A stretch of 16,000 bases of DNA from Endozoicomonas sp. 4G (GCF_023822025.1 NZ_CP082909.1:924698-940697); one strand, 5' to 3'. Positions 5,335-12,563 are shown, numbered from the stretch's first letter. Made by a program: numbers and translations. The notes: generated by a model from the sequence alone, not told the origin.

Positions 5335-5931
5335 TTATTTATAGAGTTCCAGAGAGTCAACGGTTATGGAGTACAGGGTTTCTGTGTACTCAGACTGGGT
5401 GGTCTCAACGTTCAGGGTGCCTACCAGCCAGTAAGGGGTATAGCCCGCTTCCTCAACCTTGATCCCCTTTTCTTTCTCCTTGAATTTCACATAAATGGTC
5501 TGGTTAGGTGGTGGCGGTGGTACGTGGATGCAGGCGCCCATGGTGGGCACCAGCAACAGTTCCGTTGCTCGCTGGTTTTTATCGAGATTGAGTGGTACCA
5601 GGTAGCCGGGGATTTTGACCTTGCGTTTATTCAGTCTTGCAACAGGCGTCTGGCCCAGCTTATCCAGGTAGGCGATGACCTCGTCTCTGCCCATGTCTCC
5701 GGCCTGGTAGCTGTTAATGACCTTCTGGTCCGGTGCCGGCATCAGCTCATCCCAGGTGATTTCTATGACTTCTGCCTGAGGGGTTGGTTTTTCTACCGGT
5801 TTGTCCTGAGTGGCTGGTTTTTCTACCGGTTTGTCCTGAGTAGCTGGTTTTTCTACCGTTTTGGCCTGAACGGTGACTACTGGCAACAAAGCCAGTAGCA
5901 TCGTCAGTATCAGGGGTTTTCCTGTTTTCAT
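5335..5931 (-). CDS. zrgD: Secreted DUF3299-family protein (ZrgD / PA4066-like)
   Basis: Track ORF 5335..5949 with a TTG start. I prefer the ATG at 5931, which gives MKTGKPLILTMLLALLPVVTVQA-KT, a clean signal peptide, with AAGGA upstream. The TTG at 5949 would overlap the permease stop by 4 nt. The call comes from the C-terminal domain (...GACIHVPPPPPNQ...YWLVGTL...) and from gene context, using my memory of the DUF3299 family. Confidence 0.7.
   Translation of the reverse strand: MKTGKPLILTMLLALLPVVTVQAKTVEKPATQDKPVEKPATQDKPVEKPTPQAEVIEITWDELMPAPDQKVINSYQAGDMGRDEVIAYLDKLGQTPVARLNKRKVKIPGYLVPLNLDKNQRATELLLVPTMGACIHVPPPPPNQTIYVKFKEKEKGIKVEEAGYTPYWLVGTLNVETTQSEYTETLYSITVDSLELYK
5773..5868. repeat. 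30-bp tandem repeat, about 3 copies, inside the zrgD-like gene
   Basis: GGTTTTTCTACCGGTTTGTCCTGAGT(G/A)GCT occurs at 5786-5815 and 5816-5845, with one mismatch between the copies. A degenerate third copy starts at 5846. The repeat encodes the linker (E)KPATQDKPV-EKPATQDKPV-EKPTPQ. Confidence 0.9.
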
Positions 5932-5945
5932 GAGGGATGTCCTTT

Positions 5946-7211
5946 TCAAACTCTTACGGTCAGACCGTCGGCGAGAGAGTTTTTATAGGCACGCCAGGCT
6001 GGGATCATGCCCAGAATAGTGGCGCAGATAATAATCATTCCAGCCAGTGACCACTCAAAGGTGCCCGGGGCACTGATGGCCAGGTGCAGCCCCAGTATTT
6101 GTTGAACAACGGGCTGAAGGGCCAGCAGCAGGCCATAGAGCATAAGGAAGCCCAACAGGGTTCCGGCAACGGCATAAACGACAGATTCAGTAATCATCAG
6201 CGTGAAGATATGAACAGGCCTTGCACCGACAGAGCGGAGAATCGCCATCTCTCGCCGCCTTTCGTTCAGGGAGGTGAGAATGGTGGTGAGCATCCCCATC
6301 AGACCCGCTAATACCACCATCACGGAAACCGCCAGTAATGCCTTTTCGGCGGTGCCCACCAGTTGCCAGAGTTCCTGAAGGGCCACACCGGGCAGAATAG
6401 CGGTCATGGCTTCCTGGCGGTATTCGTTTACTTTCCTCTGGTAACGGAAAGCGGCAATACGGGATTTCAGGCCGACAAAATAGGCGGTAACACTGGCAGG
6501 CTGAAGATCCATGGCCTCTGCTTCTTCAGCGGAAACTGAAAATGCGGCAATGGGCGGAGCGCCATTTACCCAGTCGATGTGCAGGGCTTCCATTCCCTCA
6601 AGGGAAATCATAATCACCCTGTCAGTGGGAGTACCTGTGGGTTTGAGAATACCTGAGACCGTGAAAGGTTTGTCATCGTGGGGTAGCAGGCTCTTACTTT
6701 CTACGCCGTGGCTCAGAATAATGTCGTCACCGACTTTATAGCCAAGCCTGGCAGCGACTTCAGATCCAAGTACAGCGTCGTACAAGGTATTAAAAGGTCG
6801 ACCTTTGGACAGTTGCAGCGACTCGTCATCACCGTATCGGAAATGATTGAACATGCCATGGGTGGTGCCCACTACCCGATAACCGTGGTGGGAGTCACCC
6901 AGGGAAATGGGTACAGACCAGGCGACGTTGGGGTCAGAAGTTAAATCCTGATAAGTTTCCCAGGTGATGTTGTTGGTGGCATTGCCAATATGGAAAACAG
7001 AATACAGCAGAAGATTCATAGAGCTGCTTCTGGCACCCACAATCAAATCGGTACCGGCAACGGTGTTGGTAAAGCTGTTTTTGGCTTCGACCCTGATACG
7101 CTCAACCCCCAAGAGCAGGGCGACGCTGACAGCAATGGAGAAGATTGTCAGCAGGGCTGTGGTTTTCCGGTTTTTAAGACTCTTTAAAGCCAGACTTAAA
7201 ATCGACATCAT
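5946..7211 (-). CDS. zrgC: ABC transporter permease, FtsX/MacB-type (4 TM with a large periplasmic domain), ZrgC / PA4065-like
   Basis: 421 aa. N-terminal TM (TALLTIFSIAVSVALLLGV), a periplasmic domain of about 230 aa, and a C-terminal three-TM FtsX domain (...ERRREMAILRSVGARPVHIF...). A strong AGGTGA Shine-Dalgarno sits between the ATPase stop and this ATG. Confidence 0.85.
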   Translation of the reverse strand: MMSILSLALKSLKNRKTTALLTIFSIAVSVALLLGVERIRVEAKNSFTNTVAGTDLIVGARSSSMNLLLYSVFHIGNATNNITWETYQDLTSDPNVAWSVPISLGDSHHGYRVVGTTHGMFNHFRYGDDESLQLSKGRPFNTLYDAVLGSEVAARLGYKVGDDIILSHGVESKSLLPHDDKPFTVSGILKPTGTPTDRVIMISLEGMEALHIDWVNGAPPIAAFSVSAEEAEAMDLQPASVTAYFVGLKSRIAAFRYQRKVNEYRQEAMTAILPGVALQELWQLVGTAEKALLAVSVMVVLAGLMGMLTTILTSLNERRREMAILRSVGARPVHIFTLMITESVVYAVAGTLLGFLMLYGLLLALQPVVQQILGLHLAISAPGTFEWSLAGMIIICATILGMIPAWRAYKNSLADGLTVRV

Positions 7212-7218
7212 TTCACCT

Positions 7219-7941
7219 TTATTGCTTTACTGGGGCAGCTTTGCTGGCCCGGTTGATTTCATTGAGTGCAATGGTGCGATCAAATAAAGGTTCAAGACTC
7301 CGGTCATGGCTGACGAACAACAGAGTGTCGCTGGCTGCTTCACATTCTGCGAACAGCAGTTTGATGAAAGCTTCCCGGGTGTCTGCGTCCAGGGCTGAAG
7401 TGGGCTCGTCGGCAATGATCAGGTCAGGTTTGCCAATTAACGCTCTGGCGGCTGCTACCCGCTGCTGCTGTCCAATACTCAGTTCTGTGACCGGGCGATG
7501 CAGTAAGGCGTCGTCCAGTTCCAGGTGCTTGAGAAGACGCCTTGCTTCATTCTGCTCACTGCTGGCAATACTGGTGAGATGGTTTTTGCGCTCTTTGGCA
7601 AAGCTCAGGGGCAGAGTGACGTTCTCTATCACAGAGAGATAGGGAATCAGGTTGAACATCTGAAAAATAAAGCCAATATGATCAGCACGGAAGCGATCAC
7701 GTTGTACCGGGGATATGCGACTAATGTCGTTCCCCAGTATTTTGACCTGTCCCCGCTCTGGTGTAATAACGCCGCCGAGCAGTCCCAATAGCGTGGTTTT
7801 GCCGGAGCCCGATGGGCCACAGACAAACACCTTTTCGCCTCTGGATATCGTTAATTCTGGAATGTCCAGAACGGGTATTCCAGGTTTCCAGCTGAACTCG
7901 ACCGCATTGAGTTCAATCAATTGAGAGCGGGAGTCAGTCAT
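7219..7941 (-). CDS. zrgB: ABC transporter ATP-binding protein (MacB/LolD-like), ZrgB / PA4064-like
   Basis: 240 aa. Walker A GPSGSGKTT, Q-loop, signature LSIGQQQRV, Walker B LIIADEPTSALD and H-loop SHD are all present. The ATG is 1 nt after the upstream gene's TAA (TAAGATG). Confidence 0.9.
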   Translation of the reverse strand: MTDSRSQLIELNAVEFSWKPGIPVLDIPELTISRGEKVFVCGPSGSGKTTLLGLLGGVITPERGQVKILGNDISRISPVQRDRFRADHIGFIFQMFNLIPYLSVIENVTLPLSFAKERKNHLTSIASSEQNEARRLLKHLELDDALLHRPVTELSIGQQQRVAAARALIGKPDLIIADEPTSALDADTREAFIKLLFAECEAASDTLLFVSHDRSLEPLFDRTIALNEINRASKAAPVKQ

Positions 7942-7942
7942 C

Positions 7943-8611
7943 TTAGAAACGAACCTCTGGCGTGCTCTTGGTCATTTCCGCAGCCGTCTGACCTTTTTGG
8001 GTAAAGCCCTGAACGCTTAAGGATTCGCTGCGTTCGAACTTTTCAAAGATTGAGGTGCTGATGGTGTTTAGCTGACTGACGTTACCACATTGAAAGACAT
8101 AGGTGGCAGAGATGTCCATATGACCGCCATGTCCTTCATGGCTGAGGTCGTGATGGGCATGCTCATCATGATGATGGTCGTGTTCGTGATGCTTGTGTTC
8201 ATCGTGATGATCGTGTTCGTGATGGTCGTGATGTGCGTGCTCATCATCATGATGATGATCGTGTTCGTGATGTCCGTGCTCGTGATCAACAGAGCTTGTT
8301 GTAGCCTTGGCACTGACCAGTTTGCAGGAAGCGGCAGGGGTCATGCTCCAGAGGCTGGCGGCTTCCAGCTTGTTCAGGGCTTCATGGAGCTGGTGGCGTT
8401 GTTTATCGGTGGTAATGGTCTCAAAGCCCAGCACATCGTTGGCCGGCATTTTCAGCTCCAGGTGAACTTCGGACCCTTCGACGGCAAAGTTCAGTTCGCC
8501 ATGTCCGTGAACATGAGCGTCAACATGACGCGGCTCTCCATTGGCGGCAGAAGCAGTCAGGGATAGAACACCGCAGGCGATACCGGCAGCCAGCTTGGTA
8601 AAAGTGTGCAT
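7943..8611 (-). CDS. zrgA: Periplasmic His-rich metal-binding protein, DUF2796 family (ZrgA / PA4063-like)
   Basis: Track ORF 7943..8680. The likely start is the ATG at 8611, giving MHTFTKLAAGIACGVLSLTASA-ANGE (signal peptide). HVDAHVHGHGELNFAVEGSEVHLELKMPANDVLGFE matches the DUF2796 N-terminal pattern as I recall it. A 56-residue His/Asp/Glu tract follows. Confidence 0.75.
   Translation of the reverse strand: MHTFTKLAAGIACGVLSLTASAANGEPRHVDAHVHGHGELNFAVEGSEVHLELKMPANDVLGFETITTDKQRHQLHEALNKLEAASLWSMTPAASCKLVSAKATTSSVDHEHGHHEHDHHHDDEHAHHDHHEHDHHDEHKHHEHDHHHDEHAHHDLSHEGHGGHMDISATYVFQCGNVSQLNTISTSIFEKFERSESLSVQGFTQKGQTAAEMTKSTPEVRF
8118..8288. repeat. Low-complexity CAY/GAY codon tract encoding the His-rich loop
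   Basis: It encodes DHEHGHHEHDHHHDDEHAHHDHHEHDHHDEHKHHEHDHHHDEHAHHDLSHEGHGGH. By my count 29 of the 56 residues are His. The DNA is quasi-periodic (catcatgatgatg / gtgttcgtgatg). Confidence 0.9.
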
Positions 8612-8685
8612 AATGTCACTCGTCGGGTCATTTATTTGAAAAAATGGAATACCGCACAACCAGTCAATAAACGACAGCAACCAGA

Positions 8686-8705
8686 CCGAATCGGAGGGGA
8701 TTCGG
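8686..8705 (-). terminator. Hairpin between the b561-like and zrgA-like genes (weak terminator or attenuator candidate)
   Basis: CCGAATC-GGAGGG-GATTCGG, a 7-bp perfect stem. No convincing U-run follows on the minus strand. Confidence 0.3.
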
Positions 8706-8792
8706 CCTGTGTCTGTGGGCAGTGTTTATCAGGCTGATTGTTAGCATTCCGTCGCGTGTTGTCGCCACGTGAGTTGTAAGCCCCGCTGGCCG

Positions 8793-9287
8793 TCATACCA
8801 TGGTTTTAAGCAGGTTACGACGGGTCAGCCAGGAAGTCATGAATACAGCCAGCAAGTGCAGGCCAACAAAATAGTAAAGGCCATTCACCAGCATGGCATG
8901 CCATTCGTAGACACCGTGCTCAAAGCCGAAATCGGTATCCTGCAACCACCCGGTAAACGCCGCCAGGGCCAGGGTAATCCACATCAGCCAGACAGCCATT
9001 GCTCCCAGTGGGTTGTGGCCTTTTTCTCCTGGTTGTCGGGTTTTCAGCTCATGAAGATGCTGTTTAATGCCCGCAAAAGAGGGCTTGATGTCCCTGAGGC
9101 GAGCGGGTGCAGGGGCAAACGTCAAACCGTAGAGCAGTCGGAGTGCTACCAGCGCAAGAATCATCCAGCCAGAGTACTGGTGATACTTATCGCAGCCATC
9201 AACCAAAAAATGGTTACTGAAAAAAAGAGCGGCAACCGTCCAGTGAATCAGCTGAACGGTACGTGGCCACCGGAACCTGTCAGACAT
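8793..9287 (-). CDS. Membrane di-haem cytochrome b (prokaryotic cytochrome b561 / Ni-Fe hydrogenase b-type subunit family)
   Basis: Track ORF 8793..9320. I prefer the ATG at 9287 (MSDRFRWPRTVQLIHWTVAALFF...), which overlaps the upstream stop as ATGTCTGA. The protein has four hydrophobic helices and conserved His positions (IHW, GHNPLG, EWHAMLVNGLYYFVGLH). The + strand ORF 8769..9314 is its antisense shadow. Confidence 0.75.
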   Translation of the reverse strand: MSDRFRWPRTVQLIHWTVAALFFSNHFLVDGCDKYHQYSGWMILALVALRLLYGLTFAPAPARLRDIKPSFAGIKQHLHELKTRQPGEKGHNPLGAMAVWLMWITLALAAFTGWLQDTDFGFEHGVYEWHAMLVNGLYYFVGLHLLAVFMTSWLTRRNLLKTMV

Positions 9288-9675
9288 CGAACTTACTGTG
9301 GTATTTCTTTTTGATGTCATTCAGTTTTTTCATTTTCTGCTTGGCCAGATCCAGATCTTGCTGATCAAGGGCAGCCTGAACACCGGCCAGACCGGTCAGC
9401 AGTTGATCGATGCCTTTCTGGAATGCCTCTGGCGAGTCAGAGTAGCCGTTTTGTTTGGCATTTTCTGCATGTTTACGAAATTCGGTTACGTAGTTTTGCA
9501 GGTCTTCAAGGGTTTTAGCTGAGCCAGAGCGTTTGAAATTGAAGCCCATTTTTTTCATTTCAGCGTTCAGCTGACTGGCATGGCCTTCCTGGTGATCAGC
9601 AGAAGCCGGCGTCGACGCCATGAAAGTAGCAGACAGTGCCAGTGGTATAAAGAGGGTTTTGACCAGTGATTTCAT
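9280..9675 (-). CDS. cybC: Periplasmic soluble cytochrome b562-family protein
   Basis: 131 aa with a signal peptide ...STPASA-DHQ. The mature part aligns by eye to E. coli cytochrome b562: LNAEMKKM vs LEDNMETL (Met haem ligand), SDSPEAFQKGIDQL vs PDSPEMKDFRHGFDIL, and the C-terminal KKKYHSKF vs RNAYHQKY (His haem ligand). Confidence 0.75.
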   Translation of the reverse strand: MKSLVKTLFIPLALSATFMASTPASADHQEGHASQLNAEMKKMGFNFKRSGSAKTLEDLQNYVTEFRKHAENAKQNGYSDSPEAFQKGIDQLLTGLAGVQAALDQQDLDLAKQKMKKLNDIKKKYHSKFDV

Positions 9676-9856
9676 GTTAATTTTCCGTATAGAAATTGAG
9701 CAGGCGTATCATAATAATTCCGCTAAGAAATAAGAAGACTGGTTGTATCAAACTTTACAATGCATGTCATAAAAATATCTAAATCTTTTCAGACATTTTT
9801 TTTACTGGCATAAAATTATACTTTGCTTATCGCTTCAATCATTGATGGGGTATGGG

Positions 9857-10531
9857 ATGCGTTTGCTTTTAGTTGAAGATAGCAGGGAGGTCGCCGGTGT
9901 TATTCTCGATTACTTTGAGAATACCGGCCATGAGGTAGATTATGCTGCCGATGGCAAGGGCGGCCTGAATCTGGCCAGTGAAAACAGTTATGACATTATT
10001 ATTCTGGATGTGATGTTACCCGGTATGAATGGTTTTAAGGTCTGCCGGGCCCTTCGTGAGCAGGGGAACAGTACGCCTGTGTTGATGTTGACGGCAAGGG
10101 ATACCACCGATGATACGCTCCAGGGATTCTCAGAAGGCGCTGATGACTATCTGATTAAACCGTTTGATCTGAAAATTCTCGATGCCAGAGTCCAGGCTTT
10201 GGTGCGTCGTAATTCATCGTCGGCCTTTAAAAAGGAGCTGTCGTACGGTCAACTTTCTCTGGATTTGGGTAGTCGTGCTGCCATAAGGGACAGTCAGTCC
10301 ATCGGTTTGAATCCGACCTGCTTCAAGATTTTGAAAATTTTGATTGATAAGGCGCCGGAAGTCGTGACCCGGGACGAGTTGATTTACGCCATCTGGAAGG
10401 ATGAGCCACCGGAAGGGGATACCCTGAGAAATCATATCTATCAGCTCAGGGCGTCAGTGGATAAACCGTTTGAGCAGGAGCTTATTATCACGGTGCCCAA
10501 GGTGGGATATCGTTTGAAGGAAGCGGTTTGA
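9857..10531 (+). CDS. OmpR/PhoB-family two-component response regulator
   Basis: The track ORF starts at the TTG at 9842. The conserved N-terminus MRLLLVEDS starts at the ATG at 9857. Receiver residues are present (DD..., ILDVMLPGMNG phospho-Asp, TARD, IKPF). The C-terminus is a winged helix (...LRNHIYQLRASVDKPF...ITVPKVGYRL). Confidence 0.9.
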   Translation: MRLLLVEDSREVAGVILDYFENTGHEVDYAADGKGGLNLASENSYDIIILDVMLPGMNGFKVCRALREQGNSTPVLMLTARDTTDDTLQGFSEGADDYLIKPFDLKILDARVQALVRRNSSSAFKKELSYGQLSLDLGSRAAIRDSQSIGLNPTCFKILKILIDKAPEVVTRDELIYAIWKDEPPEGDTLRNHIYQLRASVDKPFEQELIITVPKVGYRLKEAV

Positions 10532-10607
10532 GTTTGCGTTAAACTGCTCCCCATTCTGCCAAACTGCGAGTAGTCTAGGCGCTTTTGCTGTGAAGGAAAC
10601 TGTCTGA

Positions 10608-11891
10608 ATGTTTGACTCAAAAGCAATGCCTCCTTCTCTGCGTATGCAGATAACAGTGCCTATTTGTATTTGCCTGATTTCAATTCTGCTGGTCAATTTT
10701 TTAATTTTTTATTCCGTGCTTCACTACGTCGAGGATTCTGTCAGCATTCGCCGGGCTGAGTTCTTGCAAAGTTTTGCATTAGACAGATATAGAAGTGGGG
10801 CAAAGGGGCCTCAGGTGCTGGATCACCTGACCACTGCCTACGACCGTTACGAATCCATACCAAAGCATGTCACGAAATACTTTGATAAAAACTGGCGTGG
10901 TGGGGAAGATTTTGACGACGTCGCTAATGGGGACTCGGTTTTTACGGTGCTGGCCAAAGAGGAGATCATCAATGGTGAGAGAAAAACTCTCTATATCGTT
11001 GAGAACAGTACGCCTGTCACTATGACATTGAGTATGAAAATCACCTTGACGCTCGGTGTTGTACTGTCCTCCCTGCTGATATTGATCAGCTTTTATCTCA
11101 TCGTGAGACGGCTCTCAGAAAATGTCTCAAGGCCTTTTAATGACCTGGCTCGATTGATTGATCAGGGGAGTACCGACGATCTATTGCCCCTGTCAGAAAA
11201 AGGCCTGCATTCGCAAGAGCAGTTAAGGCTGGTGCAGGCTTTGAATGATTACCGCCGACGTATTCATTTGAGTATTGAGAGAGAAAAATCCTTCAGTCGA
11301 TACGTCAGTCATGAACTAAGAACGCCGCTGTCTGTCATCATGGGAGTGGCAGGGCTGCTTGAGATTTCTAACGCGCCGGCTTTTGTCGAGAAGCAGCGAC
11401 TCAGGCTGGAAAGAGCCTGTCGTGATATGACCGATATCTCGGAAACTCTTCTGAGTCTGGTCAGGGAGCAGAAGGCCAGTATTCAGGCCAGCAGCATGAT
11501 TGACCGACCATTTATTGAACAGTTGGTTGAAGAGAATAAGACGCTGCTACAGGGCAAGCCGGTGGCTATCAGCATTGATGCCGGGGAGGAGTTGGTGCTC
11601 AATGCACCGGATACCATGATCCGGATTTTGCTGGGTAATATCATTAAAAATGCTTTCAGTTATACCCAGGAAGGCGAGGTTTCTATTCATCTCACAGATT
11701 CCAGTCTGGAAGTTCTGGATACCGGACCTGGCCTGAAAGAAACAGCAGGCAATCTCGAAGGGCATGGCCTGGGGTTGATGATAGTGAATGACATCTGTCG
11801 TCAGAATGGTTGGTCGTTTACGTTGCAGGATCGTGTCTCGGGCTCTGGTTGTCAGGCTTTGCTGGTATTCAGTAAAGGGCATCAATCCTGA
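10608..11891 (+). CDS. Sensor histidine kinase (2 TM, periplasmic domain of about 100 aa, HisKA + HATPase_c)
   Basis: 427 aa. TM1 is ITVPICICLISILLVNFLIFYSVL and TM2 is ITLTLGVVLSSLLILISFYLIV. H-box FSRYVSHELRTPLS, N-box LLGNIIKNAFSY, G1 DTGPGL and G2 GHGLGL are present. The periplasmic domain has no motif I recognise. Confidence 0.9.
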   Translation: MFDSKAMPPSLRMQITVPICICLISILLVNFLIFYSVLHYVEDSVSIRRAEFLQSFALDRYRSGAKGPQVLDHLTTAYDRYESIPKHVTKYFDKNWRGGEDFDDVANGDSVFTVLAKEEIINGERKTLYIVENSTPVTMTLSMKITLTLGVVLSSLLILISFYLIVRRLSENVSRPFNDLARLIDQGSTDDLLPLSEKGLHSQEQLRLVQALNDYRRRIHLSIEREKSFSRYVSHELRTPLSVIMGVAGLLEISNAPAFVEKQRLRLERACRDMTDISETLLSLVREQKASIQASSMIDRPFIEQLVEENKTLLQGKPVAISIDAGEELVLNAPDTMIRILLGNIIKNAFSYTQEGEVSIHLTDSSLEVLDTGPGLKETAGNLEGHGLGLMIVNDICRQNGWSFTLQDRVSGSGCQALLVFSKGHQS

Positions 11892-11911: not shown

Positions 11912-12358
11912 TTATTGTGTTTTCCCCGTTGCCAGACTATCCCCTTGCTCTTTCCACTCTTTCAAGCCTCCTTTGAAGTGCATGATATTGGTATACCCTT
12001 TGGCTGTAGCAAAGTCAGCACCGGTAAACCAGGCTGTGCACTGTGGGCCACCGCAATAAACAACAATGGGGTAGTTTTTCAGCACAGGAAGTCGGCGCTC
12101 CAGAGTGGCCCGGTCTGCCAGTGAATAGGCGCCCGGCAGGTGACCCTTGGCGTAGGTCTCAGCTCTGTTGGTATCAAGAAGAAAGACTTCGCCGGCATCT
12201 ATTGCCTTGCGCAGTTGGGTGTAGGATATGGCTGGGTAGTGCTGATTGTAGGCCGCCAGCCTGTCTTCGGTTGTGTTTTCTGAAGCGACCACAGAGGTGC
12301 TGAACAGGATTACGGCGCAGGCTAGCCTGCGAGGGTTTCTAAACCATGTACTGAGCAT
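11912..12358 (-). CDS. Secreted single-domain rhodanese-like sulfurtransferase
   Basis: Track ORF 11912..12496. I prefer the ATG at 12358, which has GGAG about 8 nt upstream. It gives MLSTWFRNPRRLACAVILFSTSVVA-SEN (signal peptide). The rhodanese fold signature is ...GHLPGAYSL...IVVYCGGPQCTAW...GYTNIMHFKGGLKEW, with the catalytic Cys in the CGGPQCT loop. Confidence 0.75.
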   Translation of the reverse strand: MLSTWFRNPRRLACAVILFSTSVVASENTTEDRLAAYNQHYPAISYTQLRKAIDAGEVFLLDTNRAETYAKGHLPGAYSLADRATLERRLPVLKNYPIVVYCGGPQCTAWFTGADFATAKGYTNIMHFKGGLKEWKEQGDSLATGKTQ

Positions 12359-12563
12359 GGGGTTTCTCCGGTTTACTGCTAAAGCCAAGAGTATAGATGG
12401 CTCATCGGAAGTGTGTGCTGTTGGGCACCAGTTGGCAGAGCTATTGTGTGATCCCGAACTGATATTTGAAGGCAGCCAGTCAGACAGTTTCGCCATGATC
12501 GCTTTTTGACACTACTGATGCAGTCAGAGTTGATTATGAGCAGTACCACTGAGGAAAAAAACT

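Follow-up and report, generated by a model that had tools for sequence, protein, structure and literature searches.

INTRODUCTION

Zur-regulated accessory zinc ATP-binding cassette (ABC) systems of the ZrgABCD / PA4063-PA4066 type are described from Vibrio cholerae and Pseudomonas aeruginosa, and the evidence in the literature that Zrg acquires zinc under zinc limitation comes from Vibrio only (PMC9820375, PMC9817125). Small leader open reading frames (ORFs) are another feature of metal-homeostasis operons. CruR, a DUF2946 protein, is defined by a metal motif and a RAPP arrest motif that lies three residues from the C terminus, with a spacing of ~45 residues between the two (PMC9426467). RAPP is an established arrest motif, and in CutF a stem-loop masks the downstream ribosome-binding site. 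Among two-component systems (TCSs), the regulator CopR binds the site CTGACAn5GTAAT and CzcR the site GAAACn6GTAAT (PMC11195947). Here, we analyze a locus of Endozoicomonas sp. 4G in which a zrgABCD module, a cytochrome b562/b561 gene pair and a TCS lie side by side. The DNA examined, hereafter the window, is a stretch of 16,000 nucleotides from this one genome (GCF_023822025.1, NZ_CP082909.1:924698-940697). An earlier sequence-only reading of the window had joined the eight genes of the locus into one system. Our comparison with related genomes argues instead that the locus is likely a lineage-specific mosaic of three independent units, namely, b562-b561, the ZrgABCD module, and a TCS cassette.

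RESULTS

Identity and state of the zrgABCD module

We compared the window with 14 other Endozoicomonadaceae loci, which were collected from contigs encoding b562 homologues and from a ZrgA scan of representative genomes. The reach of this census is the family Endozoicomonadaceae rather than all bacteria, as the ZrgA scan was made from a close alignment only. Window proteins were mapped onto the 14 loci by tblastn, covering up to 10 kb around zrgA and less on shorter contigs, and families were assigned by Pfam profiles, NCBIfam equivalog cut-offs, and PDB matches. ORF and Pfam analysis recovered all eight genes of the locus with the families and coordinates given for them by the sequence-only reading (Table 1).

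ZrgA matched the V. cholerae ZrgA structure (PDB 8EZW, E = 1.3e-10) and that of P. aeruginosa PA4063 (7AHW, E = 2.4e-9), and it scored 168.9 bits against the NCBIfam equivalog NF047873, just under the cut-off of 185. The best NCBIfam matches of the ATPase were LolD, DevA, and FtsE, every one of them under its cut-off, while the permease is 70 to 91% identical to its orthologues in the family, with a ratio of nonsynonymous to synonymous substitution rates (dN/dS) of 0.05 to 0.09. ZrgA (PF10986) is encoded first, followed in one same-strand cluster by a separate ATPase, a permease with PCD and FtsX domains, and a DUF3299 protein. By these sequence features, the module is a zinc ABC system of the ZrgABCD / PA4063-PA4066 type but, owing to a deletion of the box position, lacks one of the defining features, the Zur box. 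The earlier identification of the quartet is thus upheld by the Pfam family of ZrgA, the 8EZW and 7AHW matches, the MacB-type permease, the DUF3299 protein, and the PA4063-66 gene order.

All four zrg ORFs are full length, and their identities to relatives are indistinguishable from those between the relatives. The dN/dS values of zrgABCD against relatives (0.07 to 0.16) do not differ from those of relative-to-relative comparisons or of cls and tauE, which flank the module. The gene junctions and the ribosome-binding-site region are also kept: the ATPase gene follows zrgA as TAAGATG, it is joined to the permease gene as TAA-AGGTGAA-ATG (7 nt), and the permease gene overlaps that of the DUF3299 protein. 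The latter has 204 amino acids in the window compared to 178 to 182 in 8E and Endozoicomonas numazuensis. The difference is accounted for by a tandem repeat (5775-5869, 30 bp, 3.2 copies) in the N-terminal part, which encodes KPATQDKPVE repeats.

The Zur-type box and zrg promoter in the window and its relatives

The search pattern TGTTATAWTATAACA found no match in the window at three or fewer mismatches. This pattern turned out to be too strict, as it missed the boxes of the relatives, whose central three bases differ. It was replaced by TGTTAT-N3-ATAACA, learned from the relatives, and complemented by the 12-mer ATGTTATAACAT. At up to three mismatches, TGTTAT-N3-ATAACA was likewise absent from both noncoding gaps of the locus (8612-8792 and 9676-9856), and its sole match in the window lies inside the kinase gene, with 6.5 matches expected by chance. 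The absence of a Zur box from either gap, as noted before, therefore stands with both patterns.

In nine related loci, a Zur-type palindrome was present at the homologous position, with one or two mismatches in six (L014-L018 and L020) and as a conserved three-mismatch box in the other three. It lies 58 to 90 nt 5′ of a leader ORF that precedes zrgA or, in L020, 207 nt 5′ of zrgA itself. The 12-mer, at no more than one mismatch, occurred 6 times compared to 0.87 expected, each time at the box position. The box TTTCATGTTATAGCATTGC is exactly conserved in E. numazuensis, Endozoicomonas arenosclerae, and a metagenome-assembled genome (MAG; L011 9493-9511, L012 ~2613-2631, and L013 ~9459-9477), and the boxes of the relatives are very similar to the verA box of V. 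cholerae, TGTTATGTTATAACA, which has experimental support. In the clade nearest to the window (L001, L009, and L010), the box is eroded to GTTTTATAGCAT in ISHI1 and to GTCTTATGGTAT in 8E and is disrupted by an insertion in ALC020. Zur control may have been relaxing in this clade before the deletion seen in the window.

Along with the palindrome, the relatives carry a promoter, TTGCTT-N18-AATAAT, 5′ of the leader ORF. In the window, 45 nt separate the stop of b561 from the leader ATG, versus 137 to 157 nt in ISHI1 and 8E, and no sigma-70-like promoter was called on the minus strand between 8612 and 8800. The Zur box would thus be missing from the window because a lineage-specific deletion took the ancestral promoter/operator.

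A leader ORF in the relatives and its remnant in the window

In 12 related loci, an intact leader ORF of 118 to 138 codons lies directly 5′ of zrgA (65% identity between 8E and E. numazuensis). A homologue search returned six proteins, all annotated only as "hypothetical," a PDB profile search with the family gave no match, and no mention of the ORF was found in the zrg literature searched by keyword. Against PF11162 (DUF2946), 7 of the 12 leader proteins gave subthreshold alignments that span the whole model (best E = 7.3e-4, 17 bits versus 23.7). In all 12, the N-terminal segment is hydrophobic, and an HWHxDQHH...C motif and an invariant TRAPP are present. The RAPP lies three to seven residues from the stop, and its spacing from the Cys is exactly 42 residues in every protein, with a highly variable intervening sequence.

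The 3′ end of the leader ORF, from its last codons to the stop, base-pairs in the relatives with a stretch immediately 5′ of the zrgA ribosome-binding site, forming a stem with covarying arms (CCTTTATCTGA / TCAGATAAATG; TTCGTCTGAT / ATCAGACGAG; CTTGTCTGG / CCAGACGAG). Judged from these features, the zrgA leader probably represents a form of the copper upstream ORFs that responds to zinc. The literature searched mentions neither zinc nor ABC transporters nor DUF2796 as neighbours of CutF-like proteins. In a Sansalvadorimonas MAG, the region between the leader and zrgA contains a near-perfect inverted repeat of 22 bp (L014 ~9920-9985), whose fold (-50 kcal/mol) is much stronger than the Endozoicomonas stems.

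In the window, this ORF is a remnant: codon 28, which reads TTG in the relatives, is a TGA (8664-8666). There is no intact leader ORF, no metal motif, and no RAPP that would qualify as CruR/CutF-type. The gap 8612-8792 had been described as a spacer containing a hairpin. The hairpin is real and is kept in the relatives (L001 and L009-L013), where two of its pairs show compensatory changes (GC to AU and UA to CG), but the gap is not a plain spacer, since the 27-codon remnant of a fifth gene lies inside it. Laid over coding sequence, the hairpin may act in attenuation or in RNA stability. We rejected it as a b561 terminator: it has no U-tract, was not called by the terminator scan, and lies inside the leader ORF in the relatives. 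A T-rich stretch comes after this hairpin in 8E.

Cytochromes b562 and b561 as a probable separate unit

Residues M40 and H126 of the b562-like protein align with the axial ligands Met7 and His102 of Escherichia coli b562, and a signal peptide is apparent by inspection. Against the NCBIfam equivalogs, b562 scored 39.8 bits (cut-off 130) and b561 19.8 (cut-off 170). Three b561 histidines (His36, His130, and His144) align with those of CybB (5OC0) in a weak match (E = 0.22), while a fourth (H15) and the helix count were assigned by inspection only. The search with b562 found just eight close homologues, and all of the named ones belong to Endozoicomonas.

The pair abuts the zrg operon in the window, in 8E and ISHI1, and in the distant Hp36 (ZrgA 46% identical), where a Zur-type box and the leader ORF sit between b561 and zrgA. 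Elsewhere, b561 and zrg lie 1.4 kb (ALC020), 3.4 kb (E. numazuensis), or 4.3 kb (E. arenosclerae) apart, with opposite-strand genes between them in the last two. In six other family loci, b562/b561 are absent from the upstream sequence examined, and the neighbours found there are mutually unrelated. Because of these insertions, the opposite-strand genes, and the absence in six loci, b562/b561 are independent of zrg. The two genes, which overlap as ATGTCTGA, are a translationally coupled unit with its own promoter core (Table 1), and their nearness to zrg is genus-level synteny. Their products would be a haem protein of the periplasm and a four-helix, di-haem protein of the membrane. No link between b562 and Zur was reported in the literature searched. 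A conserved GAATCATTATGAT upstream of b562 was considered as a Fur box and dropped, with only ~11 of 19 positions matching by eye.

The two-component cassette and the divergent region

Only in the window genome, that is, in 1 of the 15 loci, does a TCS pair lie beside zrg and b562; neither a regulator nor a kinase was found around zrgA in any of the 14 other family loci (within 10 kb, or less on shorter contigs). The 3′ end of the rhodanese gene occurs twice in the window, once at the true stop (11912-11927) and once next to the 5′ region of the regulator gene (9816-9833). Because these copies flank the TCS, it looks like a cassette of ~2.1 kb that was apparently inserted with duplication of ~15 to 18 nt of the rhodanese 3′ end. 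The region upstream of b562, with an AT-rich palindrome and the promoter core, is common to relatives devoid of the TCS, and therefore, no dedicated operator arrived with the cassette. The palindrome is kept in four Endozoicomonas genomes and may be a site for protein binding or a bidirectional terminator that lacks a U-tract.

The regulator was closest to the cztR/silR/copR subfamily (TIGR01387), although at 185.3 bits versus a cut-off of 279.2. The kinase, 100% identical to an Endozoicomonas sp. 4G protein, scored 44.9 versus 292.6 against TIGR01386, and its best matches were the PorY family (112 versus 350) and PmrB (87 versus 314). The pair fails as a heavy-metal TCS on these scores under the family cut-offs, on its single-genome linkage, and on an operator that is near-consensus only. 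In Ferrimonas and Vibrio, full-length homologues of the kinase are encoded divergently from a GT2/PMT/GtrA operon; the homologue of Endozoicomonas atrinae adjoins an RND pump, and that of Shewanella unrelated genes. The closest orthologue of the TCS, that of E. arenosclerae, has 75% identity. A metagenome scan with the kinase gave a single, irrelevant match. The arrangement in Ferrimonas balearica (L006 1-9266) and Vibrio scophthalmi (L008 4304-9260) includes both kinase and regulator homologues, and the F. balearica TCS locus is also near ychF. Because the homologues are divergent from GT2/PMT(ArnT-like)/GtrA operons, their gene context suggests that this TCS family natively controls envelope or lipopolysaccharide (LPS) modification.

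A CopR/CzcR-box-like site is present between the divergent genes, ~61 nt from both putative start sites (Table 1). It is the sole match in the window, with 0.17 expected per 16 kb, and is absent upstream of b562 in the relatives, which carry a 22-nt insert there. The site was found post hoc, its spacing is off-consensus, and the final T is missing. The relatives' insert also led us to abandon ATGACATGCATTGTAAAG as a conserved Cop-box operator and to keep it only as a post hoc, window-specific lead.

Gene content and synteny

The junction strings quoted in the sequence-only reading are exact. Both gaps measure 181 bp, and the divergent one, described as AT-rich, has a GC content of 30.9% compared to 51.4% for 8612-8792. 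In 8E, ISHI1, and ALC020, the gene order is hpt, a coiled-coil protein gene, rhodanese, b562, b561, ..., zrg, cls, tauE, and ychF. The window has the same order except that the TCS is placed between rhodanese and b562.

Between hpt and rhodanese, the window encodes a 475–amino acid Lys/Glu-rich protein (13378-14805) that is coiled-coil-like by composition. It is syntenic across Endozoicomonas and fast-evolving, with 30 to 76% identity. A tandem tRNA array (Met-Gln-Met-Gln, 2124-2530) lies between ychF and the TauE-family gene. Between tauE and ychF, 8E carries an IS605-type OrfB/TnpB gene and a resolvase fragment (L001 18121-19556) that are not in the window.

Table 1. Features of the locus. 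Positions refer to the window unless a related locus (L number) is named.
Feature	Position	Strand	Remarks
DUF3299 protein (ZrgD / PA4066-like)	5335-5949	-	PF11736, 118 bits; orthologues in 13 family loci
MacB-type permease, MacB_PCD + FtsX (ZrgC / PA4065-like)	5946-7211	-	PF12704 + PF02687
ABC ATPase, LolD/MacB-type	7219-7941	-	PF00005; begins 1 nt past zrgA stop
ZrgA-like periplasmic His-rich zinc-binding protein (DUF2796)	7943-8611	-	PF10986, 155.9 bits
10-bp pairing GTCGTTTATT / AATAAATGAC	8627-8675	-	3′ arm is leftover of ancestral stem; ancestral 5′ arm deleted
Junction of ~330-bp deletion	8645/8646	-	Versus sp. 8E and E. numazuensis; lost metal motif, RAPP, stop codon, 5′ stem arm
Leader ORF remnant, 27 codons + TGA	8664-8747	-	MLTISLINTAHR...; homologous to L001 11047-11421
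Hairpin, 11-bp stem + 6-nt loop	8682-8709	-	Inside leader remnant (codons ~14-22); region z = -3.5
Junction of ~90-110-nt deletion	8781-8792	-	Removed zrg promoter TTGCTT-N18-AATAAT and Zur-type box position
Cytochrome b561 family, putative four-helix membrane protein	8793-9287	-	PF01292, 71.2 bits, full length
Cytochrome b562-like periplasmic protein	9280-9675	-	PF07361, 72.5 bits
b562 promoter core	9708-9739	-	GTCTTCTTAT, 15 nt, TTATGAT (TATGAT -10-like); near-invariant in 7 species including TCS-less ones
CopR/CzcR-box-like site TGACATGCATTGTAA	9755-9769	-	TGACA-N6-GTAA; created by 22-nt deletion unique to window
Imperfect AT-rich palindrome, 24-nt arms, ~50 bp	9760-9811	.	After rhodanese stop in 8E, ISHI1, ALC020 (L001 ~9855-9900; L009 ~8395-8440)
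Diverged second copy of rhodanese 3′ end	9816-9833	-	…AAGCAAAGTATAA; versus L009 8330-8400 and window 11912-11927
OmpR/PhoB-family response regulator	9857-10531	+	PF00072 + PF00486
Sensor histidine kinase (HisKA/HATPase)	10608-11891	+	PF00512 + PF02518; two hydrophobic segments by inspection
Rhodanese-domain protein	11912-12496	-	PF00581; immediate upstream neighbour of b562 in relatives
Leader ORF in related loci	L001 11047-11421; L009 9569-9943; L011 9575-9949; L013 9542-9916; also L014-L019

DISCUSSION

We propose that the ancestral Endozoicomonadaceae operon would have comprised five genes, with a Zur-type box and a promoter followed by the DUF2946-like leader ORF, zrgA, and the genes for the ATPase, the permease, and the DUF3299 protein. 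The lineage of the window would have lost the box, the promoter, most of the leader ORF, and the 5′ stem arm through a ~100-nt deletion, a ~330-nt deletion, and a nonsense mutation. A PmrAB/CopRS-like cassette of ~2.1 kb would have been inserted between the rhodanese gene and the sequence upstream of b562. As a result, zrgABCD would no longer respond to Zur or to the leader peptide. Because no alternative promoter was called, the most economical explanation for zrgABCD transcription is probably read-through from the b562-b561 promoter, which would pass the nonterminator hairpin and yield a six-gene transcript. The composite of TCS, b562/b561, and ZrgABCD looks like a single-lineage juxtaposition, not a new conserved machine.

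According to the sequence-only reading, the eight genes would be one system, with a six-gene operon controlled by the TCS rather than Zur and with a redox step of b562/b561 tied to the handling of periplasmic metal by ZrgABCD. We consider this very unlikely. The divergent layout across a 181-bp AT-rich region fits such a system, but the cassette looks inserted, and TCS-less genomes share the conserved sequence upstream of b562. That reading had itself named restriction to one genome as a mark of chance juxtaposition, and the TCS adjacency is found in a single genome among the 15 loci. The regulator does have the heavy-metal cztR/silR/copR subfamily as its best match, although below the cut-off, yet the kinase homologues are found beside LPS-modification-type or efflux genes and never beside b562/b561 or zrg. 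The single TGACA-N6-GTAA site, equally far from both putative start sites, is attractive as an operator, but it carries the post hoc origin and consensus defects described above. Purifying selection on zrgABCD despite the lost control region would suit a replacement regulator, and b562/b561 stand beside zrg in four species including the distant Hp36. On the other hand, opposite-strand genes split the two in two species, six family members have them unlinked, and Hp36, in which they are adjacent and the operon is intact, has a Zur-type box and the leader ORF in between. The proposed redox coupling is not supported either, given that the b562/b561 adjacency is separable genus synteny, with insertions of 1.4 to 4.3 kb in three species. 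It is just as improbable that deletions rewired the locus so that zrgABCD was captured by the b562-b561 promoter and came under the inserted CopR/PmrA-like TCS via the TGACA-N6-GTAA site. If this were true, haem b electron transfer by the cytochrome pair and the MacB-type zinc module would be coupled in one six-gene operon, and control by envelope or metal stress would replace Zur.

The other alternative, early pseudogenization, has somewhat more in its favor, although we regard it as unlikely. Here, zrgABCD would be silent or poorly expressed and heading for decay, which would fit the genome flux typical of host-associated Endozoicomonas. The control region carries three independent lesions (two deletions and a nonsense codon), no promoter is recognizable upstream of zrgA, erosion of the Zur-type box is seen even in 8E, ISHI1, and ALC020, the closest relatives, and there is nearby mobile-element activity in relatives, such as the IS605-type OrfB of 8E. 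The coding part of the module gives the opposite picture, as the four ORFs are full length, dN/dS and identities are as between relatives, and the gene junctions and ribosome-binding-site region are intact. Read-through is moreover plausible, with the conserved b562 promoter only 1.1 kb upstream and a hairpin without a U-tract.

Several points weigh against the mosaic of three independent units. The composite configuration is carried by one genome only, and co-transcription of b562 and zrg is deduced only from the missing alternative promoter; the leader remnant may contain a promoter that is weak or not of the sigma-70 type. The dN/dS values are uninformative on zrg expression after a recent deletion, as they are measured over long branches. 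The palindrome of the relatives is assigned to Zur by its similarity to known boxes. The b562/b561 adjacency that persists in the distant Hp36 could reflect a functional tie, and the CopR/CzcR-like site unique to the window makes secondary co-option by the inserted regulator possible.

If the locus is a mosaic, it illustrates how one insertion and a small number of deletions can produce a conspicuous gene neighbourhood within a single lineage. The window would be a natural "regulatory knockout" of the ZrgABCD operon in which the coding genes are still apparently selected, and strain 4G and its relatives offer a useful comparison for the contributions of Zur and the leader peptide. If the leader senses zinc, the copper-specific nascent-peptide mechanism of CruR/CutF would extend to zinc uptake and provide a second, post-transcriptional layer of control on ZrgABCD.

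Among known systems, the module most resembles ZrgABCDE of V. cholerae and PA4063-PA4066 of P. aeruginosa, with which it shares the DUF2796 His-rich protein, the four-helix MacB-type permease with a periplasmic core, the LolD-like ATPase, and the DUF3299 protein. With PA4063-66, it also has an identical gene order, and a Zur-type box is present in the relatives of the window. It differs in that the window copy has neither a Zur box nor its own promoter, and the Endozoicomonadaceae version is headed by a DUF2946-like RAPP leader ORF.

This leader, as seen in the relatives, resembles CruR (Bordetella pertussis bp2923) and CutF (Rhodobacter capsulatus) in being a small ORF with an N-terminal hydrophobic segment and a metal-ligand motif that heads a metal-homeostasis operon. 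As in CruR, RAPP is near the C terminus, at a fixed distance from the motif (42 to 46 residues versus 45 in CruR), and as in cutF-cutO, a stem-loop lies between the end of the ORF and the downstream ribosome-binding site. In contrast to both, the motif is His-rich with a single Cys (HWHxDQHHxxxC) instead of CXXC or CxxxC, the PF11162 score is subthreshold, and the operon is a Zur-box zinc-uptake ABC operon, not a copper system. In the window, the gene is dead, and its remnant has no motif, RAPP, or stem.

The cytochromes are similar to E. coli CybC and CybB (superoxide:quinone oxidoreductase) in Pfam family, in the Met/His ligands of b562, and, in a weak match, in three aligned b561 histidines. 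They are, however, far under the NCBIfam equivalog cut-offs, and their genes overlap as a pair, whereas cybC and cybB are unlinked in E. coli. The best NCBIfam matches of the TCS are the cztR/silR/copR subfamily for the regulator and PorY/PmrB for the kinase. Like CopRS, CusRS, CzcRS, and PmrAB, the TCS combines an OmpR-type regulator with a kinase having two hydrophobic segments and is encoded divergently from metal-related genes, with one CopR/CzcR-like half-site pair in the intergenic region. It departs from them in its sub-cut-off scores and its single-genome adjacency, and homologous pairs flank GT2/PMT/GtrA or RND genes. Compared to the CopRS and CzcRS operators, the window site has a nonconsensus spacing and is not conserved.

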